Below the pieces are notes generated by a model, which saw nothing but the letters and a program-made list of their open reading frames with translations, was not told the origin of the DNA and did no database searches. This document shows positions 4,886-61,096 of a DNA stretch of 64,000 nt, in pieces (positions within the stretch are counted from its first letter, which is position 1; every line of letters starts with the position of its first letter). This stretch comes from a virus. Where the stretch lies: the IMG/VR virus record IMGVR_UViG_3300013102_000005, positions 1-64,000 of that record. One strand, written 5' to 3'. Made by a program: the position numbers and the translations under genes.

Positions 4886-5387
4886 TGCCCACCTCCGCCA
4901 GGATCTCGGAGGCCAAAGCCACAGCGGCCTCCTCCTCGGCCTCGGTATCGAACGCCACCAGCGGCACCAACTGGATGACGCGCTGCGCCATCTGCACCAG
5001 GGCGCCCTCGGGGGCGTATTCGCGCATCTGCCTGAGCAGGCGGGTCAATTCCTGCTCCGGGCTTTCCACGCCGTCCAGCACCAGGGCCTGGCCATCCTCA
5101 TCGTCGAGATCGTCCAGCAGCATGGCGGCGAGCGCGTCGGGATCCATGGTCACGGTGACGCCGTACTCGCGCGACTGGCAGAAGCCGTAAAGCTCGCCCG
5201 GTTCGAGGGTATCGGCCGACAGCCGTTCGCCGGCGGCGCCGACGACCATCTGGAGATCCATGTAGGCGCGGAAGTAGGCGAGGGCGCTGGCGTCGCCCTG
5301 GTAGGACACAGGCTTGGCTTCGTCCTCGTCCCAGAGTGCCAGGAACTGGCCGTGTGGGGTGGCAACGGTGTATTGGGTAGAGATCAT
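4878..5387 (-). CDS. Hypothetical head-associated protein (dar cluster)
   Basis: Start at ATG 5387 (MISTQYTV) overlapping upstream stop; acidic; LVLDGV motif. Confidence 0.6.
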   Translation of the reverse strand: MISTQYTVATPHGQFLALWDEDEAKPVSYQGDASALAYFRAYMDLQMVVGAAGERLSADTLEPGELYGFCQSREYGVTVTMDPDALAAMLLDDLDDEDGQALVLDGVESPEQELTRLLRQMREYAPEGALVQMAQRVIQLVPLVAFDTEAEEEAAVALASEILAEVGNE

Positions 5388-7300
5388 TGCTGCTGCGCTC
5401 CCAGCACGGACTGCGCCCTTTCCAGCAGGGCCTTGACGGGGTCTTTGTTGAAGCGGGTAGAGATCACGTTCTGCCAGGTCTTGCGCATGGAGCTGCCCTG
5501 GGTGTGGGCGATCACCATGAAGGCCTTCACCAGTTCGAGGTCGCCGTGGATGGCCGAAAAGTCGGGTATGTAGAGGCGGGCGCCGTCTTCGGTCGTGACC
5601 AGGTAGCCCTTGGCGTTGCGCTGCGTGTTTTGGTTGCGGAACACGCCCTGGAAGACGTGCATGTCTTGCCAGCCACCCAGGTAGGTCGGCACCTTGCCGC
5701 GCACGAAGGCGTAGCGGCCAAAGTGGCTGGCATCCTCGGCCCGCTCCGCCTGCAAGCGGTCCCACCAGCCGTCCACCGTCAGAGTCACCTGCTTGGCCAG
5801 GATGGCGACGGTCTCGACATAGAGCTTGCCGTCCTCTTCGCGCCGCTCCTGGAGCATGTCCACGGCGACCGTGTGCAGACCCAGCTTGGCCCGCATCGCT
5901 GGCGTCAGCTCGCTGGCCAGGTAGCCGGAGATCAGCGCGAACATTTCGGGATCCTTTGCGGCGAACAGCGCCGCATCCCTGGGGTTGGCCAGGTACTGGA
6001 CGCCCATGGAGAACACTTCGGTGATGCCGTCGGGGTAGATCTTGCCGATGTAGGGGTTCAGCCAGCTGTCCTTGTAGGCGACCTCGTCCTTGCGGTACTT
6101 CTTGTTGTCGGTGAGCCCGCGCAGGGAGTAGGCCATCCCGTCCTCACGTCGGCGCACGAGGAAGCCGTTGGCGGCCGCCTTTGCGATAGGGTCGTTTTCG
6201 AGGTGGTGCGCCAGCTCGTGGAACAGGACGGTGCGATCAAAGCGCGAACCGACGTTCACGACCTTCTCCCCCAGGCGCGTGGAGACGCCCACGGCGTTGG
6301 CGCGGCTACCGCCGTCCACGGAGATCCGCACCGCCGAAGACTTGCCACCGGTGAGGCGGTAGAAGTCGGCCATGTCCCGCAGCAGCGACTCACGGGTGTA
6401 GCCGCCACGTTCGAGCTTGGCCACCGCCTTGGCGTCCAGGATCTGCGTCGCGGCCCAGGCCTCGGCCTGCTCCTGGGTCACGGGCGATGCTTCGCGCAGC
6501 GCCGTCAGGATGGCTTGCCCTTCGTCTTCGAAAACGGCTTGGCTGCGCTTGAACTTGGCCTCATCGAAGGCGCGAGCAACGGCCAGGGCCTGATCCTTCA
6601 AGGGCTTGCGATCTTTCTGGTATCGCTCCCAGAGAACCGCCTCCTCCTCTTGGAGCTGGCGCAGCTCGGCATCGTCGCCGCCGTCCTTCACCAGCCGGCC
6701 AGCAGCCCGCAACTTCGGGTTGAGGACGTCCACAGCGGCCTGCATGGCATCGTCCAAGGCCTTGAGGGCGACCAGCGCCGCTTGCATCGCGGGATCGTCG
6801 TGCGCCGACTGCTTGAGCAGCTCCTTGGCTTCGGCCTCCTTGCGCAGCACGGTGGCGGCATCGATGCCGGTATCCACGCCCCTTGCCGAGATCTCCTCGT
6901 AGGCGGCCAGGTTGGCGATGTCGCGCTTGGGGCCCCAGACCCCTTCCAGGGCGATGTCGTTGGCGCGAGCGTCCAGGGTCTTGGAGCCGACCGTGCTGGC
7001 CAGCTCCGACACCGTCATGGCCTCGAACGGGACCAGGGCCTCGGGCAGCTGCTCCAGACCATCGTCCAGGTACTGCTCCAGCGCCTGGGTGGAGCCGGCC
7101 ACATCGGTCAGGGAAAACGCGATGGCGCGCATGGCGGTCTTGATGCCGGCGCCCAACTGCTCCAGCAGCTTGGCCACGACACCGGCGATACGCACGCGCT
7201 CTAGGGCAGGGAGTTCGCCCTCCAGGGAGCGAACATTTTCAGCGAGTTCGCCTGATAGGCGCACTCGATCAAGCGGAGAAATGGCGTCCAGAATTTCCAT
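5384..7300 (-). CDS. DdrB-like capsid-internal protein with zincin metallopeptidase domain
   Basis: LFHELAHHLE (HExxH) followed by YIGKIY..TEVFSMG; adjacent to darA; own late promoter element. Confidence 0.65.
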   Translation of the reverse strand: MEILDAISPLDRVRLSGELAENVRSLEGELPALERVRIAGVVAKLLEQLGAGIKTAMRAIAFSLTDVAGSTQALEQYLDDGLEQLPEALVPFEAMTVSELASTVGSKTLDARANDIALEGVWGPKRDIANLAAYEEISARGVDTGIDAATVLRKEAEAKELLKQSAHDDPAMQAALVALKALDDAMQAAVDVLNPKLRAAGRLVKDGGDDAELRQLQEEEAVLWERYQKDRKPLKDQALAVARAFDEAKFKRSQAVFEDEGQAILTALREASPVTQEQAEAWAATQILDAKAVAKLERGGYTRESLLRDMADFYRLTGGKSSAVRISVDGGSRANAVGVSTRLGEKVVNVGSRFDRTVLFHELAHHLENDPIAKAAANGFLVRRREDGMAYSLRGLTDNKKYRKDEVAYKDSWLNPYIGKIYPDGITEVFSMGVQYLANPRDAALFAAKDPEMFALISGYLASELTPAMRAKLGLHTVAVDMLQERREEDGKLYVETVAILAKQVTLTVDGWWDRLQAERAEDASHFGRYAFVRGKVPTYLGGWQDMHVFQGVFRNQNTQRNAKGYLVTTEDGARLYIPDFSAIHGDLELVKAFMVIAHTQGSSMRKTWQNVISTRFNKDPVKALLERAQSVLGAQQQ

Positions 7301-7538: not shown

Positions 7539-9692
7539 TCAGGCAGCGGTTGCCTTGGCTACGACGGCCGCCGAGTAGGCTTCAGCGGCCTGCTCGAACA
7601 GGTTCAGCAGGTCGGCATTGCCGTGGATCTGCTCATAGACCTGGGTCAGCGTCTGGGCCAGGGCCGGATCGGTCATGTCCTCGTTCCCGTCGATCACCGA
7701 TTGCAGCAGCGCGCGGGCGGCCTCCAGTTCGTCTGACACCACCGCTGCTGGGTCAGGCTGCACGGCCACAGTCTCTGGCACCGCAGGCATGGCAGCTACG
7801 GCCTTCGCTACCAGGGGCGGCACGATCTCGGCGAACTGCTCCGGCTGCCACGGCGCGACGTCGAGCTTATCCAACCCCTGGGCATCTACGCGGTAAAGCA
7901 TCAGGAACCGTCCATTGGCGGAGACCCGCAATTCGAAGCCTTGGCCGTCCGCGCGCACCGCCCGGAACTGGTCGGGAGCCGATTCGACAACGGTAAAGTC
8001 CTCGGGAAGTGCGGCGCGCGCCACGTCGTTCAGGAGCAAGGGGGTTGCCTGGCCCTCGGCGGTTGGCTCGGGCACGGCTACCGTTTCCACGCTCGCGTTC
8101 AGCTGGGTAGCCAACTGCTCGGGTGTGAGGGTGAGATCGTCCAGCACCTTGGTGGTGCCGTCGTCCACGAGCCAGGTCACCGCTACGACATTGGCACCCG
8201 CGCCCACGTTGCGGGTCTGGTGGCGCACGCTGTGATAGGAACCATCGACCACCTTCGTCAGCTCGATAGTGCGCAGCGGGCCGCCCCAGCCCAGGTCGCG
8301 CAGGGCATTGCGCACGGCGACGATGCGGCCAGCGAAAAAGCTGTCCAGCGCGTCCTGGTGCGCACGCTGGAGGCGGTCGTCGGCCAGCACCTGGGCATAG
8401 CCTTCCGGGCTCAGCGGATCGAACTGGCCAGGCGTGCGGCCGCTGGTATCGACCGCGCCTTGTTCGTCGCCAGGCTGGACGGCCTGGGTGTTGCGCTTGG
8501 CCTGCACCTGGGTGGTCAGGTCCTCGATCTCCGCTTCCAGGGCCTGGAGCTCCTGCTCTTTGCTGGCCACCTGCTGACGGCTGTCCTCGATCGCCTGCAT
8601 GCGCTGCGCCCGGCCCTCGTTGGCCTTCTGGAATCGCGCGCTGTTCTTCTCGGCCAGACGCATGATTCGCCGCGCCACTTCGCGCGGGTTGAGGTCCAGG
8701 CCCTTCTCGGGCGCCACCAGGATGGTGATGTCCATCTTGTTGAGCATCCACTTCCAGCTAACCAGCTCATCGGTCGGCAGGATCCTGTCGGGGGTGGCGT
8801 CAGGGTTGTGAAACCAGATGGCCACGCTCTGTCCATCGCTCAGCTCATAGACCGCGCAGATGTTGGTGGTGCCGCGCTGCTTGAACGGCTCGGTGACCTG
8901 CAAGGCAACCGGCTTCACCTTGTCGCCGGCGCTGTCCATGATCCGCTGGAGCTGCTCCATCTTGATCTGGAGCTTGGAGCTGATCACCACCATGGCATCG
9001 AGCGCCTCGAAGCCATCGGCGTCCTCCATGATGTCGGCGATGGTGCAGGCGTCCAGCAGCAGGTCGGCATCATCGGCCCGGCGAAGGCCGTAGATCAGGC
9101 CTGCCAGATTGGCCTCGACCGGCATCGCGGCGCTGTCCCAAGAAATGGTGCTCATGTCGTTCTCGCTATCGAAGGGCAGCGCCGCAGCGCTGAAGGGGAT
9201 GGAGTGGTCGCCGTATTTCAGCCACCAGCGAAACTGGCCCAGGGTGGCGCCGATGATCGCGCCCAGGCCCTGCCAGCCACGCTCGTAGCTGCCCAGATAG
9301 GCCTGGCGCGCGGAGTCCTCGTCGGTGAACCCCAGCATCACCTTGTGCTCGTCGAAGCCACCGCTACGGCTGTTCTGGTTCACCACGAACACGCGCGTCG
9401 ATTCCGGCACCGGCCCGACGAATACGTCCACCGGATCGCCGTCGGCCCCGCGCGTACCGGTGATGTCGCCATAGTGGGCCTGCATCACCACCGACCAGGG
9501 CTTGCCATCCTGCTTGCCGATGCGGTGCTGGCCCTTGGGCGTCTCGATGGCGATTGGCAGCCCATGGAGCTGGAGGCGCCCCTTGCGGTAGTTGCCGGCC
9601 TGGAGCTGGGCGGGTGTGGGATGCGCGCTGGAGCCATGGCCCAGTGCCCCGGCATGGGCGCCGCGCTGGATTGCCGAGTAGAGGTCTGTCAT
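7539..9692 (-). CDS. darA: DarA-like defence-against-restriction protein with N-terminal polyvalent inorganic pyrophosphatase domain
   Basis: YGDITGTRGADGDPVDVFVG...FDEHKVMLGF iPPase motifs; ELSDGQSVAIWFHNPD...SWKWMLNKMDITILVAPE DarA_N; QDALDSFFAGRIVAVRNALRDLGW DarA_C-like. Confidence 0.8.
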   Translation of the reverse strand: MTDLYSAIQRGAHAGALGHGSSAHPTPAQLQAGNYRKGRLQLHGLPIAIETPKGQHRIGKQDGKPWSVVMQAHYGDITGTRGADGDPVDVFVGPVPESTRVFVVNQNSRSGGFDEHKVMLGFTDEDSARQAYLGSYERGWQGLGAIIGATLGQFRWWLKYGDHSIPFSAAALPFDSENDMSTISWDSAAMPVEANLAGLIYGLRRADDADLLLDACTIADIMEDADGFEALDAMVVISSKLQIKMEQLQRIMDSAGDKVKPVALQVTEPFKQRGTTNICAVYELSDGQSVAIWFHNPDATPDRILPTDELVSWKWMLNKMDITILVAPEKGLDLNPREVARRIMRLAEKNSARFQKANEGRAQRMQAIEDSRQQVASKEQELQALEAEIEDLTTQVQAKRNTQAVQPGDEQGAVDTSGRTPGQFDPLSPEGYAQVLADDRLQRAHQDALDSFFAGRIVAVRNALRDLGWGGPLRTIELTKVVDGSYHSVRHQTRNVGAGANVVAVTWLVDDGTTKVLDDLTLTPEQLATQLNASVETVAVPEPTAEGQATPLLLNDVARAALPEDFTVVESAPDQFRAVRADGQGFELRVSANGRFLMLYRVDAQGLDKLDVAPWQPEQFAEIVPPLVAKAVAAMPAVPETVAVQPDPAAVVSDELEAARALLQSVIDGNEDMTDPALAQTLTQVYEQIHGNADLLNLFEQAAEAYSAAVVAKATAA

Positions 9693-56239: not shown

Positions 56240-57166
56240 CTACAGGTTGCGCCGAGGGGCAGCGGCACCGGTGAATTTAGCCCGGTTGGCCTCCGCCTGC
56301 TTCATCGAACGCTCATACAGGGCATCCAGCTCGGCCGCGCTCACCAGATTGACCACGGTCTCCTGGCGCTCGTCGTACAGGCGCAGAATCTTCATCAGGG
56401 TCTCACGGGCCCGTTCCTGGTTGTGCACCATCAGCTCCAGACCTTCCTTGGTGCGCTTCACGCCGGCATACAGTGCCTGAGCGGACGGAGACAGGTTGCG
56501 CGTGTCCTTGAACACCTCGCGCTCGATGCCTTCGCCGTAGCACTCCGGGCAGCTCTCGACCGGCTCCTTGCGTGGATCGTAGCCCGTCCCGCCCTCGGGA
56601 TCGGGTTCGGGCGGTAGGTCAGCGTCGCTGGCGTCAGGGTTGCGCTCCAGGGCCTTGCGCAGGTCCTCCTCCCACTTGCGCTGCCGGTTGCGCCACTCGC
56701 CTGGCTTGTACTGATACAGGTGATCCTCCCCGTAGCAGAAGCGGCAGCACTCCCGGCGCATCTCCATGAGTTCGTTCGGGTCAGCGAACGCAACGGCCAC
56801 CAGCTGCTCTAGCACGCGCGTCTGGAGGTCTTCGCTCTTCTCGAACAGGACCTTGATGCGTAGCGCCATCAGCGCCCGGACCTTAGCGGAATTTAGCAGG
56901 CGATGCGCACTCGCACATGCCCCGCCGGTGCTCTGGACGTTGTAGACCGCCATGTAGGCCTTGGTCTGGTTGTAGGTCCGCAGGTACTCATCCACGAACT
57001 GGACGTGTTGCGGATCCATGCCAGAGACCAGCTCATCCTCAGCGGACAGCTTGGGATCGAGCACCACGGGAGCAGGCGCCTCCTCCTTGGCCGTAGCCTT
57101 GGATCGAGGAGGACGCTTGGGCTTGGCCTTGGGAGCTGGCTTATCCGCCTTGGGCTTGGGAGCCAT
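56240..57166 (-). CDS. Terminase small subunit with zinc-binding insert
   Basis: FVDEYLRTYNQTKAY...ASAHRLL TerS HTH; CRFC...CPEC; LYAGVKRTKEG. Confidence 0.8.
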   Translation of the reverse strand: MAPKPKADKPAPKAKPKRPPRSKATAKEEAPAPVVLDPKLSAEDELVSGMDPQHVQFVDEYLRTYNQTKAYMAVYNVQSTGGACASAHRLLNSAKVRALMALRIKVLFEKSEDLQTRVLEQLVAVAFADPNELMEMRRECCRFCYGEDHLYQYKPGEWRNRQRKWEEDLRKALERNPDASDADLPPEPDPEGGTGYDPRKEPVESCPECYGEGIEREVFKDTRNLSPSAQALYAGVKRTKEGLELMVHNQERARETLMKILRLYDERQETVVNLVSAAELDALYERSMKQAEANRAKFTGAAAPRRNL

Positions 57167-57287
57167 AGGGAGAACCTTGCAGGAATGAGAGGAACACGAC
57201 CACGGAGCGCCCTGCTGATCGAGCAATGGGAACCGTAGGCGATGCGGGGTATCGAGCCTTGCCGACTAGGGCAGGTATGTGAGCACC

Positions 57288-57355: not shown

Positions 57356-57892
57356 TTACCGGTGACGCTTGGACAGGTAGGGATTGGGGAGGCGGTAGAC
57401 GGCGCGCTCGACCAGGCCGGCCCAGAACAGGGTGGCGGCACTCAGGGACACGGAGAGGCTGTAGGCACCGGCCAGGGCGGCAGTGCAGGCCTCATGACCG
57501 GTTACCGCTGTCAGGCCGAAGTAGACCAGGGCGGCGCAAGCATACAGGGCGCGACGGGCCCAGCGCTTCCAGCGTACCGACATGCCGAGGCGGTTGCGCA
57601 GCTCGATGACGTCGCCCTCCCGCATGGTCATGCGCATATTGCCGCCGGCGGTGACCTTCACGCCCTTGTAGAGGAAGGCAGTACCCTCCCGTAGCTGGAT
57701 GTCCACAAGGGTGTGCGGCTGTACGGCCATATCGGCCCGGCGGGTGGTCAGCCAGGCGCGCAGGCGGTTGGGGCGAGGTGGCAGCTTGCGGCTCTCTTCG
57801 GCCTCACGGCAACCCAGGCACCAGATCAGGTGGCCACCGATCTCGTCGTAGCGGCACTCGCAGGTCTGGGGGATACGAGGCTCACACGTCAT
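57356..57892 (-). CDS. Hypothetical membrane protein
   Basis: N-terminal Cys pairs, two C-terminal TM segments. Confidence 0.5.
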   Translation of the reverse strand: MTCEPRIPQTCECRYDEIGGHLIWCLGCREAEESRKLPPRPNRLRAWLTTRRADMAVQPHTLVDIQLREGTAFLYKGVKVTAGGNMRMTMREGDVIELRNRLGMSVRWKRWARRALYACAALVYFGLTAVTGHEACTAALAGAYSLSVSLSAATLFWAGLVERAVYRLPNPYLSKRHR

Positions 57893-58060
57893 ACGTCACC
57901 TGGGTGATGGGTGAAACCATGGAAGAAAAACGCATGCTGGACCTCGGTAACGGTTGAATGGGTCCCGGTTACTCCATCCGGGGCGCTCTGGTAGCGGCTT
58001 CGAGGGCACGCTGTGCGCAGCAAGCGACTTGCGGTCGCGGCGCCCGATACCCTGGGCGCG

Positions 58061-58165
58061 TGGTGCAGGTGGCCGGTGCCGTCTCTCCGGCTTGTTGCTC
58101 GTCCCGCTATGGGAGCAACCCCAGGCGGCGGGTTTCAGTGCGCATCGGCCTGCGCATTCACCTGC
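58061..58165 (-). ncRNA. tRNA-like RNA with canonical acceptor stem and encoded ACCA but no canonical anticodon or TPsiC loop
   Basis: GCAGGTG/CACCTGC + A-CCA; TGCGCA-GGCCGA-TGCGCA arm; GCCGG-AGAGACGGCA-CCGGC arm stacked on acceptor. Confidence 0.6.
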
Positions 58166-58263
58166 ATCGGTAGAACGTCCTGCCAGGGCTCACCAGGAAA
58201 AGGTGCGGGCCCTGGCAGGGCGCTCTCCCATGCAGCCCACACTGCCGTGGGTGCAATCGGGGG

Positions 58264-58761
58264 TCAGGCGGCGGCCCGCGCCTCTTGTGCAAGCGGCTGG
58301 CAGAAGTTGCGAGCGACCTGATCCAGGTACTTGGCGCCCACCAGGCCGAGGGTCTCAAAGCCGGCCAGCTCCTCAACGCTGAACTGCACCAAGGAGACGA
58401 GATCCACGACGCCGGCCGGATACAGCACCTGGCGATATTCGTAGGGCACCCGCATATCCAGCAGGGAGGGATTACCGAAATCCACCTCCGGGCCATCCGC
58501 CAGGCACAGGCCATGAGCACGAAGCAGGTTGTGGATGTGTGCAGCGCCCCGGTAGCGGATACCCGGAATGTCGATGAGCTCTTCCAGGCTGGTGCACTGG
58601 AGATCGACGACGGTGAGGATGTTGGCGCGAGCCAGGTCGCTCAGCTGCTTGGTGCAAAGACCCAGGGTGGCCAGGTCGAGCGCGGCGATCAGCGCCCGAT
58701 CAAGATCGGCGACGACGATGGCGGCGGCCAGGGAGGTGGTGCTAACACTGTCTTGGGTCAT
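58264..58761 (-). CDS. Tandem RNA polymerase alpha-CTD-like (HhH) protein
   Basis: Two repeats resembling alpha-CTD: LATLGLCTKQLSDLARANILTVVDL..SLEELIDIPGI..HNLLRAHGLCL and LLDMRVP..LYPAGVVDLVSLVQFSVEELAGFETLG. Confidence 0.7.
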   Translation of the reverse strand: MTQDSVSTTSLAAAIVVADLDRALIAALDLATLGLCTKQLSDLARANILTVVDLQCTSLEELIDIPGIRYRGAAHIHNLLRAHGLCLADGPEVDFGNPSLLDMRVPYEYRQVLYPAGVVDLVSLVQFSVEELAGFETLGLVGAKYLDQVARNFCQPLAQEARAAA

Positions 58762-58855
58762 GGGTTCACGTCTTTGCGTGGCTGTATGGGGGAGGCACCT
58801 GAGCCAGGGGACTCTCCGATACAGCCCGACCGCCGCAGCGGCCAGGCATAGCGCA

Positions 58856-59275
58856 TCAGCGGCGAGCGGCGCGCGGCTTCTTGGGCTTGGTGTCGGGCAC
58901 CTGGGCCGGATCGGTCTTGGCCACCGCCGGGCCGGCATCGGCCAGCAGGGTGTGGCGCGGCAGGCCCTCGGGGGTGACAGCCATGTGACGGCACTTCACG
59001 ACGGTCGCCGGGGATCTCTGGCCAGGAAGGTCTGCAACGTCGTAAACCACCAGCACCAGGTGATCACCCACCTCGGGCAGTACGCCGCCCACGAAGGTGT
59101 CCGCGATCTTGTCGTTCTCGACAGCGACGCCGTGAGGGATGTACTCGGGCTCGGGCTGGCGACTGAGCCAGGATTGCGCCAGCGCGTGGATGGCAGGCGC
59201 CGAGTTCGGGTCTTGCAGCGCGCCATTGAGGGCGTATTGCAGTTGCTGGGGCGTCATGTCTTGCGGCTGATTCAT
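58856..59275 (-). CDS. Hypothetical protein
   Basis: MNQPQDMT start; phage-like codon usage. Confidence 0.55.
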   Translation of the reverse strand: MNQPQDMTPQQLQYALNGALQDPNSAPAIHALAQSWLSRQPEPEYIPHGVAVENDKIADTFVGGVLPEVGDHLVLVVYDVADLPGQRSPATVVKCRHMAVTPEGLPRHTLLADAGPAVAKTDPAQVPDTKPKKPRAARR

Positions 59276-59469
59276 GTCGGTCTCACTGGTCTCGGGTTGC
59301 TGCTGCATGGCTGCATGGGTCAGGACGCCGGCGCCGGTCGCGCTGCGTACTCACCGATGCACCCTTGCGGGGTTCGGGCCGGTTGCCACTCCCGGCGATC
59401 ACCCTCACCAGCGTCGCTGGCCAGGGCATCGGCTTCACCCTGTGCGGCCACTGCCAGCCAGGGAGGTCT

Positions 59470-59538
59470 TGGGCGAGGCGGTGGAGTTGAACCACCGAGT
59501 CGGGATGATGAGTCCCGTCTTGCACCGGCATGCCTCGC
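59470..59538 (-). tRNA. Atypical tRNA(CAT) with shrunken D-arm
   Basis: GCGAGGC/GCCTCGC acceptor; CGGGA-CTCATCA-TCCCG anticodon arm; GGTGG-TTCAACT-CCACC T-arm; followed by CCA. Confidence 0.7.
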
Positions 59539-59750
59539 AGTGCTCATGCCCTCTTGACGCCCGTTGCCGGGGAGGACTTACGACTGGGTCCCGCCATTGG
59601 GCCAGCCCACTCCGTTGGGCGACCCTGCCGAGGAGGTTGCCGGCAGGCGTATCAGCTGTGTGGGATGGTGGCCCTACGCTCTCCACACCCACGTATCCAG
59701 GCTATCCCTCCGCGAGGGCCGCCCTGGCACGGTGTTTCCAATCCCTCAGC

Positions 59751-60494
59751 TCAAGCGAACAAGTCGCCGCTCGGGCTGCGTTCGGCCTGGGCCCGGTCGC
59801 GCAGGTCGGCGCGATCGGCGATCAGGTCGATGCTGATTTGCTTAACGTTCTGCGCGGTGGACTGGCGCATCCGGCGATCAAACTCACCGTTGGCCACCTG
59901 GAACTCGCGCTCGATGATTTCGCAGTGCTTCAACTCGCCCGCGATACGGGCATCCGCACCGGTGATGACGTCTTCAAGGCCGCGCAGAGCCGCCTCCAGC
60001 GTTGCCGAGCCGCGCCACTCCTCCTCGTACTCGGGATTGAGCTGGGCCATGCGGCGATGGGCGTGCTTCACGTCCTTGAGCTTGATGGCGATACGCTGGA
60101 GGTCGGAGCGGTCCTGGTTCTGGCCCTGGAGGGCGACACCCACCTGCTGGGCCAGATACTCGTGGTAGCGGCTGGTGGACTCGGCGATGGTGTTGGCCAC
60201 CAGCCTGACGCGAAAGCTCTGGTTGTTCTCGGCAGCGTCGGCCAGGGGGTCGTCGCTGGTGCCGGACAGGTAGTCCAGAGGTACTGCGAACAGCTCGGCC
60301 ATGCCGATCATGTCCAGCAGCTTGGGCATGCGCTCACCGCTCTCCCAAAGACTGATCTGGGTAGCGTTTTCGTGTCCCAAGTGATGCGCAACTGCGTCCT
60401 GGCTCATGTCCGCCAATTTGCGGGCAGCGTAGATGCGGCAACCTATGATCTGGCGCAGCTTTGCGGCTCTTTCGGCAGCGGTCGGAATGGCCAT
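59751..60494 (-). CDS. XRE-family HTH repressor with coiled-coil C-terminus
   Basis: IYAARKLADMSQDAVAHHLG...ISLWESGERMP...FAVPLDYL. Confidence 0.85.
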   Translation of the reverse strand: MAIPTAAERAAKLRQIIGCRIYAARKLADMSQDAVAHHLGHENATQISLWESGERMPKLLDMIGMAELFAVPLDYLSGTSDDPLADAAENNQSFRVRLVANTIAESTSRYHEYLAQQVGVALQGQNQDRSDLQRIAIKLKDVKHAHRRMAQLNPEYEEEWRGSATLEAALRGLEDVITGADARIAGELKHCEIIEREFQVANGEFDRRMRQSTAQNVKQISIDLIADRADLRDRAQAERSPSGDLFA

Positions 60495-60616: not shown

Positions 60617-61096
60617 CTAGGAAAACCGGATGATTTCGTCCACCTGCTGCTGTAGCCGCTGCTCGTCCAGCTGGTTGCGGTACACGTGCTTGAGGATGGC
60701 GTTGATGACGTCGGAGTAGATCGCCTGGGCCTGCTCTTCCTTGCAGTTGGCGTAGCTCAGGCTCGCGGCCTTGAGCCGCACCTTGCCGGTGATGTCATAG
60801 GTCGGCTCGTAGTGGCCGGCCATGATGATCAGGTCCTTGCGGAAGCGATCGATGCACGGCACCACCTGGCGGCCTCGGTACTCCATCGCGGCCAGGTTGT
60901 TCTCGCACCAGTGGTCATAGGCCACGCGGAACAGCACCATGGTTTTCTGGAGGAACTTGTAGTTGCGGACCTGCTTGACCTCGCAACGCACGCCAGCGCC
61001 GACCTTGAGCCTTTGCAGCTGCTCGATGCCCTCCTCGGTGGCCGGCCGTAGCGACCCGTCCATGGTCTTGACGAGGATGATCTCCAAGGCGCGCAC
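60617..61096 (-). CDS. DUF1367 (NinB-related) protein
   Basis: VRNYKFLQK...DRFRKDLIIMAGHY...SLSYAN. Confidence 0.8.
   Translation of the reverse strand: MRALEIILVKTMDGSLRPATEEGIEQLQRLKVGAGVRCEVKQVRNYKFLQKTMVLFRVAYDHWCENNLAAMEYRGRQVVPCIDRFRKDLIIMAGHYEPTYDITGKVRLKAASLSYANCKEEQAQAIYSDVINAILKHVYRNQLDEQRLQQQVDEIIRFS

Follow-up and report, generated by a model that had tools for sequence, protein, structure and literature searches.

The genome that hosts the element described here is a complete 93,777-bp (93.8-kb) IMG/VR record with direct terminal repeats, and the window, i.e. the whole stretch of DNA that was analysed (64,000 nucleotides), corresponds to its first 64 kb. All the genes neighbouring the element lie on the minus strand, where a gap of 442 nt separates a gene encoding an XRE-type HTH protein from the packaging genes. 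This gap can be regarded as non-coding because its codon-position GC is flat. The features of the locus are the following, ordered from upstream to downstream on the minus strand:

60617-61096, minus strand: NinB/Orf gene, upstream of the HTH gene.
59751-60494, minus strand: XRE-type HTH gene (Pfam HTH_3; homologues found), upstream of the element and used as synteny anchor.
59309-59750, minus strand: non-coding gap of 442 nt around the element.
59654-59733, minus strand: Proteo-phage-1-like RNA (RF03044), sub-threshold (26.3 bits for a cut-off of 42).
59470-59538, minus strand: tRNA(CAU)-like RNA (direct reading, ARAGORN and RNAfold), with a homologous copy in a Pseudomonas luteola contig (L006).
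59532-59538, minus strand: 5' strand of the acceptor stem, pairing with 59473-59479; 7 of the 7 pairs are kept in L006.
59521-59530, minus strand: miniature D hairpin of 3 bp with loop CGGU, including a GG pair of bases (direct reading and RNAfold).
59501-59517, minus strand: anticodon arm, 5-bp stem and loop CUCAUCA with U33 (direct reading).
59480-59496, minus strand: T arm, 5-bp stem and canonical loop UUCAACU (direct reading).
59470-59479, minus strand: 3' strand of the acceptor stem (59473-59479), then CCA (59470-59472) (direct reading).
58061-58165, minus strand: second tRNA-shaped RNA, from a different family, in the same RNA island.
56240-57226, minus strand: small terminase subunit gene (TerS), downstream, past small ORFs.

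Neither a sigma-70-like promoter nor an intrinsic terminator was found across positions 57800-59900, so that the element would belong to a longer transcript. Within the RNA island, no conserved sequence complementary to the anticodon loop was found.

The preliminary description of this DNA had reported, at 59470-59538 of the minus strand, a tRNA(CAU) with perfect acceptor, anticodon and T stems but a miniature D arm, no U8, a pyrimidine at position 37 and a CCA abutting the stem without a separate discriminator. Direct reading and ARAGORN identify the same element, and each of these observations holds. The element is a cloverleaf of 69 nt, CCA included, in which 17 of the 17 pairs of the acceptor, anticodon and T stems are Watson-Crick (7 + 5 + 5 bp). 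Its D region is restricted to 14 nt, with a stem of only 3 bp (U-A, G-C and C-G) and a loop of 4 nt. An A is found at position 8 (59531), just before the D hairpin, and a C at position 37 (59507), next to the CAU anticodon (59508-59510). The variable region spans 4 nt. In the window copy, CCA directly follows the acceptor stem; in an alternative reading, the 3' end consists of C73 followed by CA, and CCA would have to be added, whereas the L006 copy carries UA before CCA.

ARAGORN calls the element as a tRNA-Met(CAU) with a poor D arm (59471-59538), and this is its sole call in the complete genome, for a background of about 0.03 per genome (2 calls over 5.6 Mb simulated with a first-order Markov model of this genome). 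The minimum-energy structure predicted by RNAfold is the cloverleaf with the miniature D hairpin (-29.6 kcal/mol, z = -2.8), and the same cloverleaf is also recovered as minimum-energy when the whole 442-nt gap is folded. At gathering score, the element has no match in Rfam, including RF00005 and clan CL00001; the best score within this clan, obtained in E-value mode, is that of tRNA-Sec (20.9 bits for a cut-off of 47). By covariance models, the element is therefore not a standard tRNA. A tmRNA was also considered and discarded, as ARAGORN finds none and the element has an anticodon arm.

Globally, the element combines the outline of a tRNA (7-bp acceptor stem, 5-bp anticodon and T stems, T-loop matching UUCRANY) with a D arm of only 3 bp and 4 nt. 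Among the invariants of the tRNA core, only the GG is retained: position 8 is an A, position 37 is a C, and A14 and A21 are both missing. The features that distinguish initiator tRNAs are not found in their usual form either. Positions 1 and 72 are paired (G1-C72) in the structure as drawn and are unpaired (U and C) only if the 5' end is placed one base upstream. The run of G-C pairs expected at 29-31:39-41 is found at 28-30:40-42, with A31-U39 adjoining the loop, and the 3-bp D stem does not include the A11:U24 pair that initiators carry in a 4-bp stem.

No close relative of the phage was found in GenBank. Two near-identical fragments, L002 and L029, carry an identical element; L002, which is 99% related, displays 0 changes in the element compared with about 10 in the remainder of the gap, a difference that is not significant alone. 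More distant relatives of the same genome type, reached through homologues of the HTH protein, are Pseudomonas plasmid-like phages of 81-114 kb. They differ in what they carry in place of the element:

L006, 89.5-kb contig of P. luteola NBRC 103146, HTH 52% identical: more reduced copy.
L007/L018 (genome G003), Pseudomonas MAG contig and 87-kb IMG/VR record, HTH 39% identical: canonical tRNA(CAU).
L130, P. psychrotolerans plasmid CP018759, HTH 46% identical: element absent.
L131-133, three further Pseudomonas plasmids of 81-95 kb, HTH 30-34% identical: element absent.

About 86-108 ORFs (at least 70 codons, all six frames considered) are shared among G000, the P. luteola contig and G003, and the synteny of the locus is preserved (a gene encoding a 356-aa protein, NinB, HTH, a variable region and TerS). 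CP018759.1, CP048608.1, NZ_AP015032.1 and NZ_CP070504.1 are non-mobilizable Pseudomonas plasmids of 81-114 kb with terminase genes, and in each of these four plasmids the HTH gene is followed by 0.4-1.4 kb without any annotated gene. Because terminase genes are aboard, these deposited plasmid relatives are likely phage-plasmids. CP018759 retains several blocks of the RNA island but no tRNA-like element. No such element was found either in Paraburkholderia L012, in plasmids L131-133 or in Xanthomonas phage Rb1; the latter is syntenic, and its gap appears, from a reading of the sequence, to hold unannotated reading frames.

In G003 (L007), the HTH gene is followed by two canonical tRNAs, a tRNA-Thr(CGU) (63.7 bits) and a tRNA(CAU) (68.6 bits). 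The latter is 91% identical to the initiator tRNA-fMet genes of the Pseudomonas host and keeps the three loop-adjoining G-C pairs as well as A11:U24. In this gene (L007 6211-6287, i.e. G003 5157-5233), a U1-A72 pair replaces the C1/A72 mismatch of the host tRNA, and two compensatory changes affect the stems. The replacement of C1/A72 by U1-A72 enables the tRNA-fMet of Escherichia coli to serve as an elongator in vitro.

The window element is 80% identical to the L006 copy, 77% identical to host tRNA-fMet and only 61-62% identical to the elongator/Ile2-like tRNA(CAU) of phages. It is thus related to tRNA-fMet by sequence homology and lies in the same region as the canonical copy of L007. Judged by these comparisons, the element is a remodelled copy of the host initiator tRNA-fMet. 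An attP or integration site was examined as another origin for this likeness and rejected: the longest words exactly shared with host tRNA-fMet are about 7 nt, and the relatives were deposited as free circular plasmids.

Several derived features are common to the window and L006 copies and absent from host tRNA-fMet, from L007 and from the other tRNA(CAU) genes of RNA islands that were compared. These are C37, the word GGGA-CUCAUCA, an additional A preceding the loop, a variable loop of 4 nt, one more C-G pair at the base of the acceptor stem and a G-C pair at 50:64. Most simply, the reduced design would have arisen a single time, before the split between the window and L006 lineages, and would have been maintained by constraint since then.

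The L006 copy (5923-5990) is homologous but further reduced, and ARAGORN calls it only at a lowered threshold. Its acceptor stem has 7 pairs; relative to the window copy, it displays one double change from G-C to A-U and one bulged G. The D region, which spans 10-11 nt, forms no real hairpin, so neither the length nor the sequence of the D hairpin is conserved between both copies. In the anticodon stem, a single G-C pair is accompanied by three G-U pairs and a mismatch. The variable region is also 4 nt long, and the T arm is good, with 5 of 5 pairs kept and a double change from U-A to C-G. Two bases (UA) precede CCA, compared with none in the window copy. An 11-nt word of the anticodon arm, GGGACUCAUCA, is identical in both copies, and C37 is therefore kept in L006.

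Between the window and L006, the flanking genes encode proteins that are about 52% identical, and only 66 of the 177 four-fold degenerate sites of the HTH, NinB and TerS genes are identical, i.e. 37% compared with the 31% that base composition predicts, which means that neutral sites are saturated. The gap itself cannot be aligned, except for two islands, one of which is the element and the other a part of the Proteo-phage-1-like RNA. Within the element, 33 of 44 positions are identical from the anticodon stem to the 3' end (the 3' two-thirds), and about 44 of 66 over its whole length. The L006 copy is retrieved with 27.2 bits by a model based solely on the window copy (E = 0.0035 in 325 kb).

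In the stems, standard pairs occupy 33 of the 34 pair cells in register, compared with 38-59% after displacement of the 3' partners by 1-3 columns, although these counts come from two sequences whose alignment was fitted to the structure, and the shuffle control did not reach significance. Besides the double compensatory changes in the acceptor stem (G-C/A-U) and in the T stem (U-A/C-G), four changes to G-U or U-G preserve pairing on this strand alone. The covariation statistics are weak since only two independent lineages have the reduced form.

As the element is 67-80% identical while flanking synonymous sites are saturated, the reduced form is old and probably under purifying selection rather than the product of a recent deletion. 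It is probably a working RNA rather than a dead gene, because a distant relative keeps the reduced design with compensating base changes. The suggestion of selection rather than decay made in the preliminary description is thus borne out by the distant L006 copy, which shares the reduced architecture and C37 and whose stems display compensatory changes and changes that preserve pairing through G-U. The preliminary description had also considered, as the opposite outcome, that related phages would carry a normal tRNA here and that this copy would be a recent deletion. The former part proved correct, as L007/G003 does carry a normal tRNA(CAU) in the region; the latter part did not, as the reduction is not recent.

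The element is dispensable, because CP018759, whose HTH protein is 46% identical, has no copy yet keeps other blocks of the island. Furthermore, the L006 copy may itself be decaying, as its anticodon stem is weak, its acceptor stem bulged and its 3' tail different.

To date, only two lineages are known to carry the reduced form. In IMG/VR, the matches to exact and degenerate DNA patterns were limited to near-identical copies, the copy of P. luteola and two coding-sequence matches due to chance. A covariance model identified no further member in 168 Pseudomonadaceae genomes (17 + 151), where one match of 31.9 bits lacks CAU and overlaps long ORFs, and gave no match in 79 phage RNA-island loci. 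BLAST searches of plasmids and phages revealed no additional copy.

The element is not the only structured RNA of the island. The second tRNA-shaped RNA, at 58061-58165, has no match in Rfam at gathering score but is a member of a family of phage RNAs that is very widespread: a word of 20 nt taken at its 5' end matched at least 119 IMG/VR contigs, and relatives were found in L130 (about 6797-6937), L006 (about 6878-6998) and L142-L258. Members of this family are closed by an acceptor-like helix of 8 bp and share a D-like hairpin (loop GGCUGA), a T-like hairpin (loop AGAUCAGCR) and a YCA tail. Their middle part is variable (about 30-170 nt) and sometimes includes a T-arm-like hairpin or a whole tRNA called by ARAGORN. 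They are often located between terminators, beside tRNA genes, and the L006 member has undergone a 2-bp compensatory deletion in the closing helix.

The Proteo-phage-1-like RNA lies directly after the stop codon of the HTH gene and corresponds to a conserved block in L006. CP018759 carries at the same place a similar RNA that is also sub-threshold (L130 5701-5782, 29.7 bits), and L218 carries a true Proteo-phage-1 member (8075-8153, 61.4 bits) about 210 nt upstream of a member of the widespread family. The Proteo-phage-1-like RNA and the widespread RNA family thus appear to travel together.

RNA modules are immediately preceded by long hairpins made of the inverted-repeat words CTGCATYGG ... 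CCRATGCAG, at 58160-58235 of the minus strand in the window, at 5836-5918 in L006 and several times within 6190-7330 in L007. The modules preceded by such hairpins include the tRNA-like copy of L006 and the tRNA of L007, and these hairpins could be processing sites or module borders. A crude scan for a 7-bp helix, a hairpin and CCA gave three same-strand matches within 1.7 kb, namely 59616-59722 (minus strand), the target element and 58061-58165, for a background of about 11 per shuffled genome; the match at 59616-59722 may be due to chance.

The reading that is tentatively favoured, although with slightly less than even confidence, is that the element would be a mimic or variant of the initiator tRNA that is excised by RNase P; it is preferred to a relic, to a processing signal alone and to a standard decoder. 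The host tRNA-fMet would have been captured by an ancestor of this group of Pseudomonas phage-plasmids of about 90 kb. On the branch from which this phage and the P. luteola element both stem, the captured tRNA would then have been remodelled: the D arm would have been cut to a tiny hairpin, a base pair added beneath the acceptor stem, consuming position 8, the anticodon helix shifted or lengthened, the variable loop shortened and A37 replaced by C. Comparison of both copies shows that selection has since maintained the acceptor stem and T arm, along with the anticodon loop.

Lacking both a promoter and a terminator of its own, the element is probably part of a long transcript extending from regulatory to packaging genes. 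RNase P would be expected to excise it from this transcript, because the minimal substrate of this enzyme is a T arm on which an acceptor stem is stacked. Once released, this RNA of about 66-69 nt would resemble tRNA-fMet by its top half and by its CAU loop. It might act as a variant tRNA(CAU) that evades putative host factors aimed at the normal initiator tRNA, or as a decoy for such a putative factor; an ordinary decoding adaptor would be less likely.

The recognition of tRNAs by MetRS is dominated by the CAU anticodon (PMC9976931), and the element is therefore a plausible ligand of the Met/fMet machinery. It is established that some phage tRNAs with altered anticodon loops evade tRNA nucleases (PMC10264068), and variant phage tRNAs are used against defences that cleave tRNAs (PMC10264068 and others). 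The parts of the element that are conserved, i.e. the anticodon loop and the acceptor/T top half, fit those read by proteins of the Met/fMet pathway and by many tRNA-directed enzymes.

Several possible partners were searched for. Among the genes shared by both phages with the reduced form and missing in G003, which include those of a dUTPase, a GDSL lipase, a C92 amidase and unknown proteins, none encodes a tRNA-related protein that would co-occur with the element. A full-length RtcB RNA ligase is encoded by the phage (window 45102-46337, minus strand, Pfam 444.7 bits), but a link with the element was rejected, as the gene is absent from both the P. luteola sister contig and G003. A Y-RNA/Ro system was also rejected, the phage having neither a TROVE/Rsr gene nor a YrlA match. 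A wider generalization, in which phages would repeatedly trim captured initiator tRNAs into non-decoding mimics of tRNA-fMet that divert or neutralise a host factor, seems rather doubtful. Such mimics would be characterized by a mini D arm and a pyrimidine at 37, and the candidate factors would include a defence nuclease, an acetylating toxin or an initiation checkpoint.

Three other explanations have to be weighed against this mimic or variant of tRNA-fMet. The element could be a compact but working tRNA, which would be released by RNase P and 3' trimming, undergo CCA repair after C73, be charged by MetRS and read AUG as an initiator or elongator. Its perfect stems, canonical T-loop, U33 and CAU would suit a functional tRNA, the GG of the mini D-loop is available for an elbow contact, its descent from tRNA-fMet and the purifying selection agree with this role, and MetRS requires little beyond CAU. 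The details of the core are nevertheless hard to reconcile with decoding: a C occupies position 37, where a purine is near-universal, position 8 is an A, A14 and A21 are missing, and the score against tRNA models is only 20.9 bits. Pairing of C37 with the base preceding start codons was considered and discarded, as the -1 base before ATG is mostly a C and not a G in 3 of 3 phages. Furthermore, several parts differ between both copies, i.e. the 3' geometry (no base before CCA in the window, two in L006), the length of the D region and the G-C run of the anticodon stem, which is lost in L006. A working tRNA is thus somewhat unlikely. A decaying relic of a phage tRNA, whose similarity to L006 would result from a recent loss of function or from a recent exchange of a short piece, is less probable again. 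Canonical in L007, reduced in its D arm in the window, further degraded in L006 and absent from CP018759, the element does form an apparent decay series; it also scores under all tRNA thresholds, and phage genomes are mosaic. However, all 17 stem pairs of the window copy are perfect, and the derived features common to both copies, with the compensatory changes that came afterwards, imply that the reduced state has lasted for long. A recent exchange is opposed by the saturation of nearby neutral sites and by immediate flanks that cannot be aligned, and the unchanged element of L002, compared with about 10 changes in the rest of its gap, points in the same direction although it is not significant alone.

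The last explanation, which appears quite improbable, is that the tRNA shape is only a processing mark, which would recruit RNase P to cut an early/late transcript and release a piece without any role, as in the tRNA punctuation of mitochondria or in MALAT1/mascRNA. A gap devoid of promoter and terminator, within an island of structured RNAs and hairpins between genes, would suit such a mark, and the best-kept helices are precisely the acceptor stem and the T arm that suffice for RNase P. This explanation does not account for the complete identity (11 of 11 positions) of the anticodon loop and the neighbouring stem strand despite a saturated divergence, and CP018759 keeps the island without the element. 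Among the three functions put forward in the preliminary description (nuclease-resistant tRNA, decoy for toxins, RNase P processing signal), an RNase P signal alone is thus the poorest fit, because of this conserved anticodon loop.

Phage tRNA genes are known to counter host defences that destroy tRNAs, and the known cases are full-size. A tRNA(CAU) of a bacterial virus that is deprived of most of its D arm and of purine 37 but maintained by selection would show either that bacterial translation tolerates far smaller tRNAs than assumed, or that phages use look-alikes of tRNA-fMet beyond decoding. The element is a small and concrete RNA that can be tested in culturable strains, P. luteola NBRC 103146 harbouring the sister copy.

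Compared with the bacterial tRNA-fMet of the Pseudomonas host and of L007/G003, the element shares CAU and U33, the run of three G-C pairs in the anticodon stem, a T-loop of the UUCAA type, an acceptor sequence starting with GCG, 77% identity with the host gene and the region occupied by the canonical phage copy. It differs by its D arm (3 bp and a 4-nt loop, compared with 4 bp and 9 nt), by the lack of U8, A14 and A21, by C37 instead of A37, by a G-C run located one pair off the loop, by a variable loop of 4 instead of 5 nt, and by an extra pair at the base of the acceptor stem, with 1:72 paired as drawn and no A73.

The phage tRNAs that escape nucleases, those of T5 and others (PMC10264068, PMC11464382 and PMC11555353), offer a second comparison. 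They resemble the element by a changed base in the anticodon loop and by being host-type tRNAs borne by phages, and this phage also encodes an RtcB RNA ligase. They are full-size and their function has been shown, whereas the element has a truncated body and a putative function, and a nuclease aimed at tRNA-fMet would be hypothetical.

The metazoan mitochondrial tRNA-Ser (PMC9976931) illustrates that a D arm can be reduced or absent while the other three arms are kept, as here. These D-armless tRNAs are however organellar, work with adapted factors, keep a purine at 37 and have no evolutionary link with the element. Finally, the mascRNA of MALAT1 and the viral 3' tRNA-like structures (PMC9976931) are, like the element, tRNA-shaped modules of long transcripts that RNase P could excise and that have a small D region; these modules are eukaryotic or belong to plant viruses, whereas the element conserves the anticodon loop of a specific tRNA.
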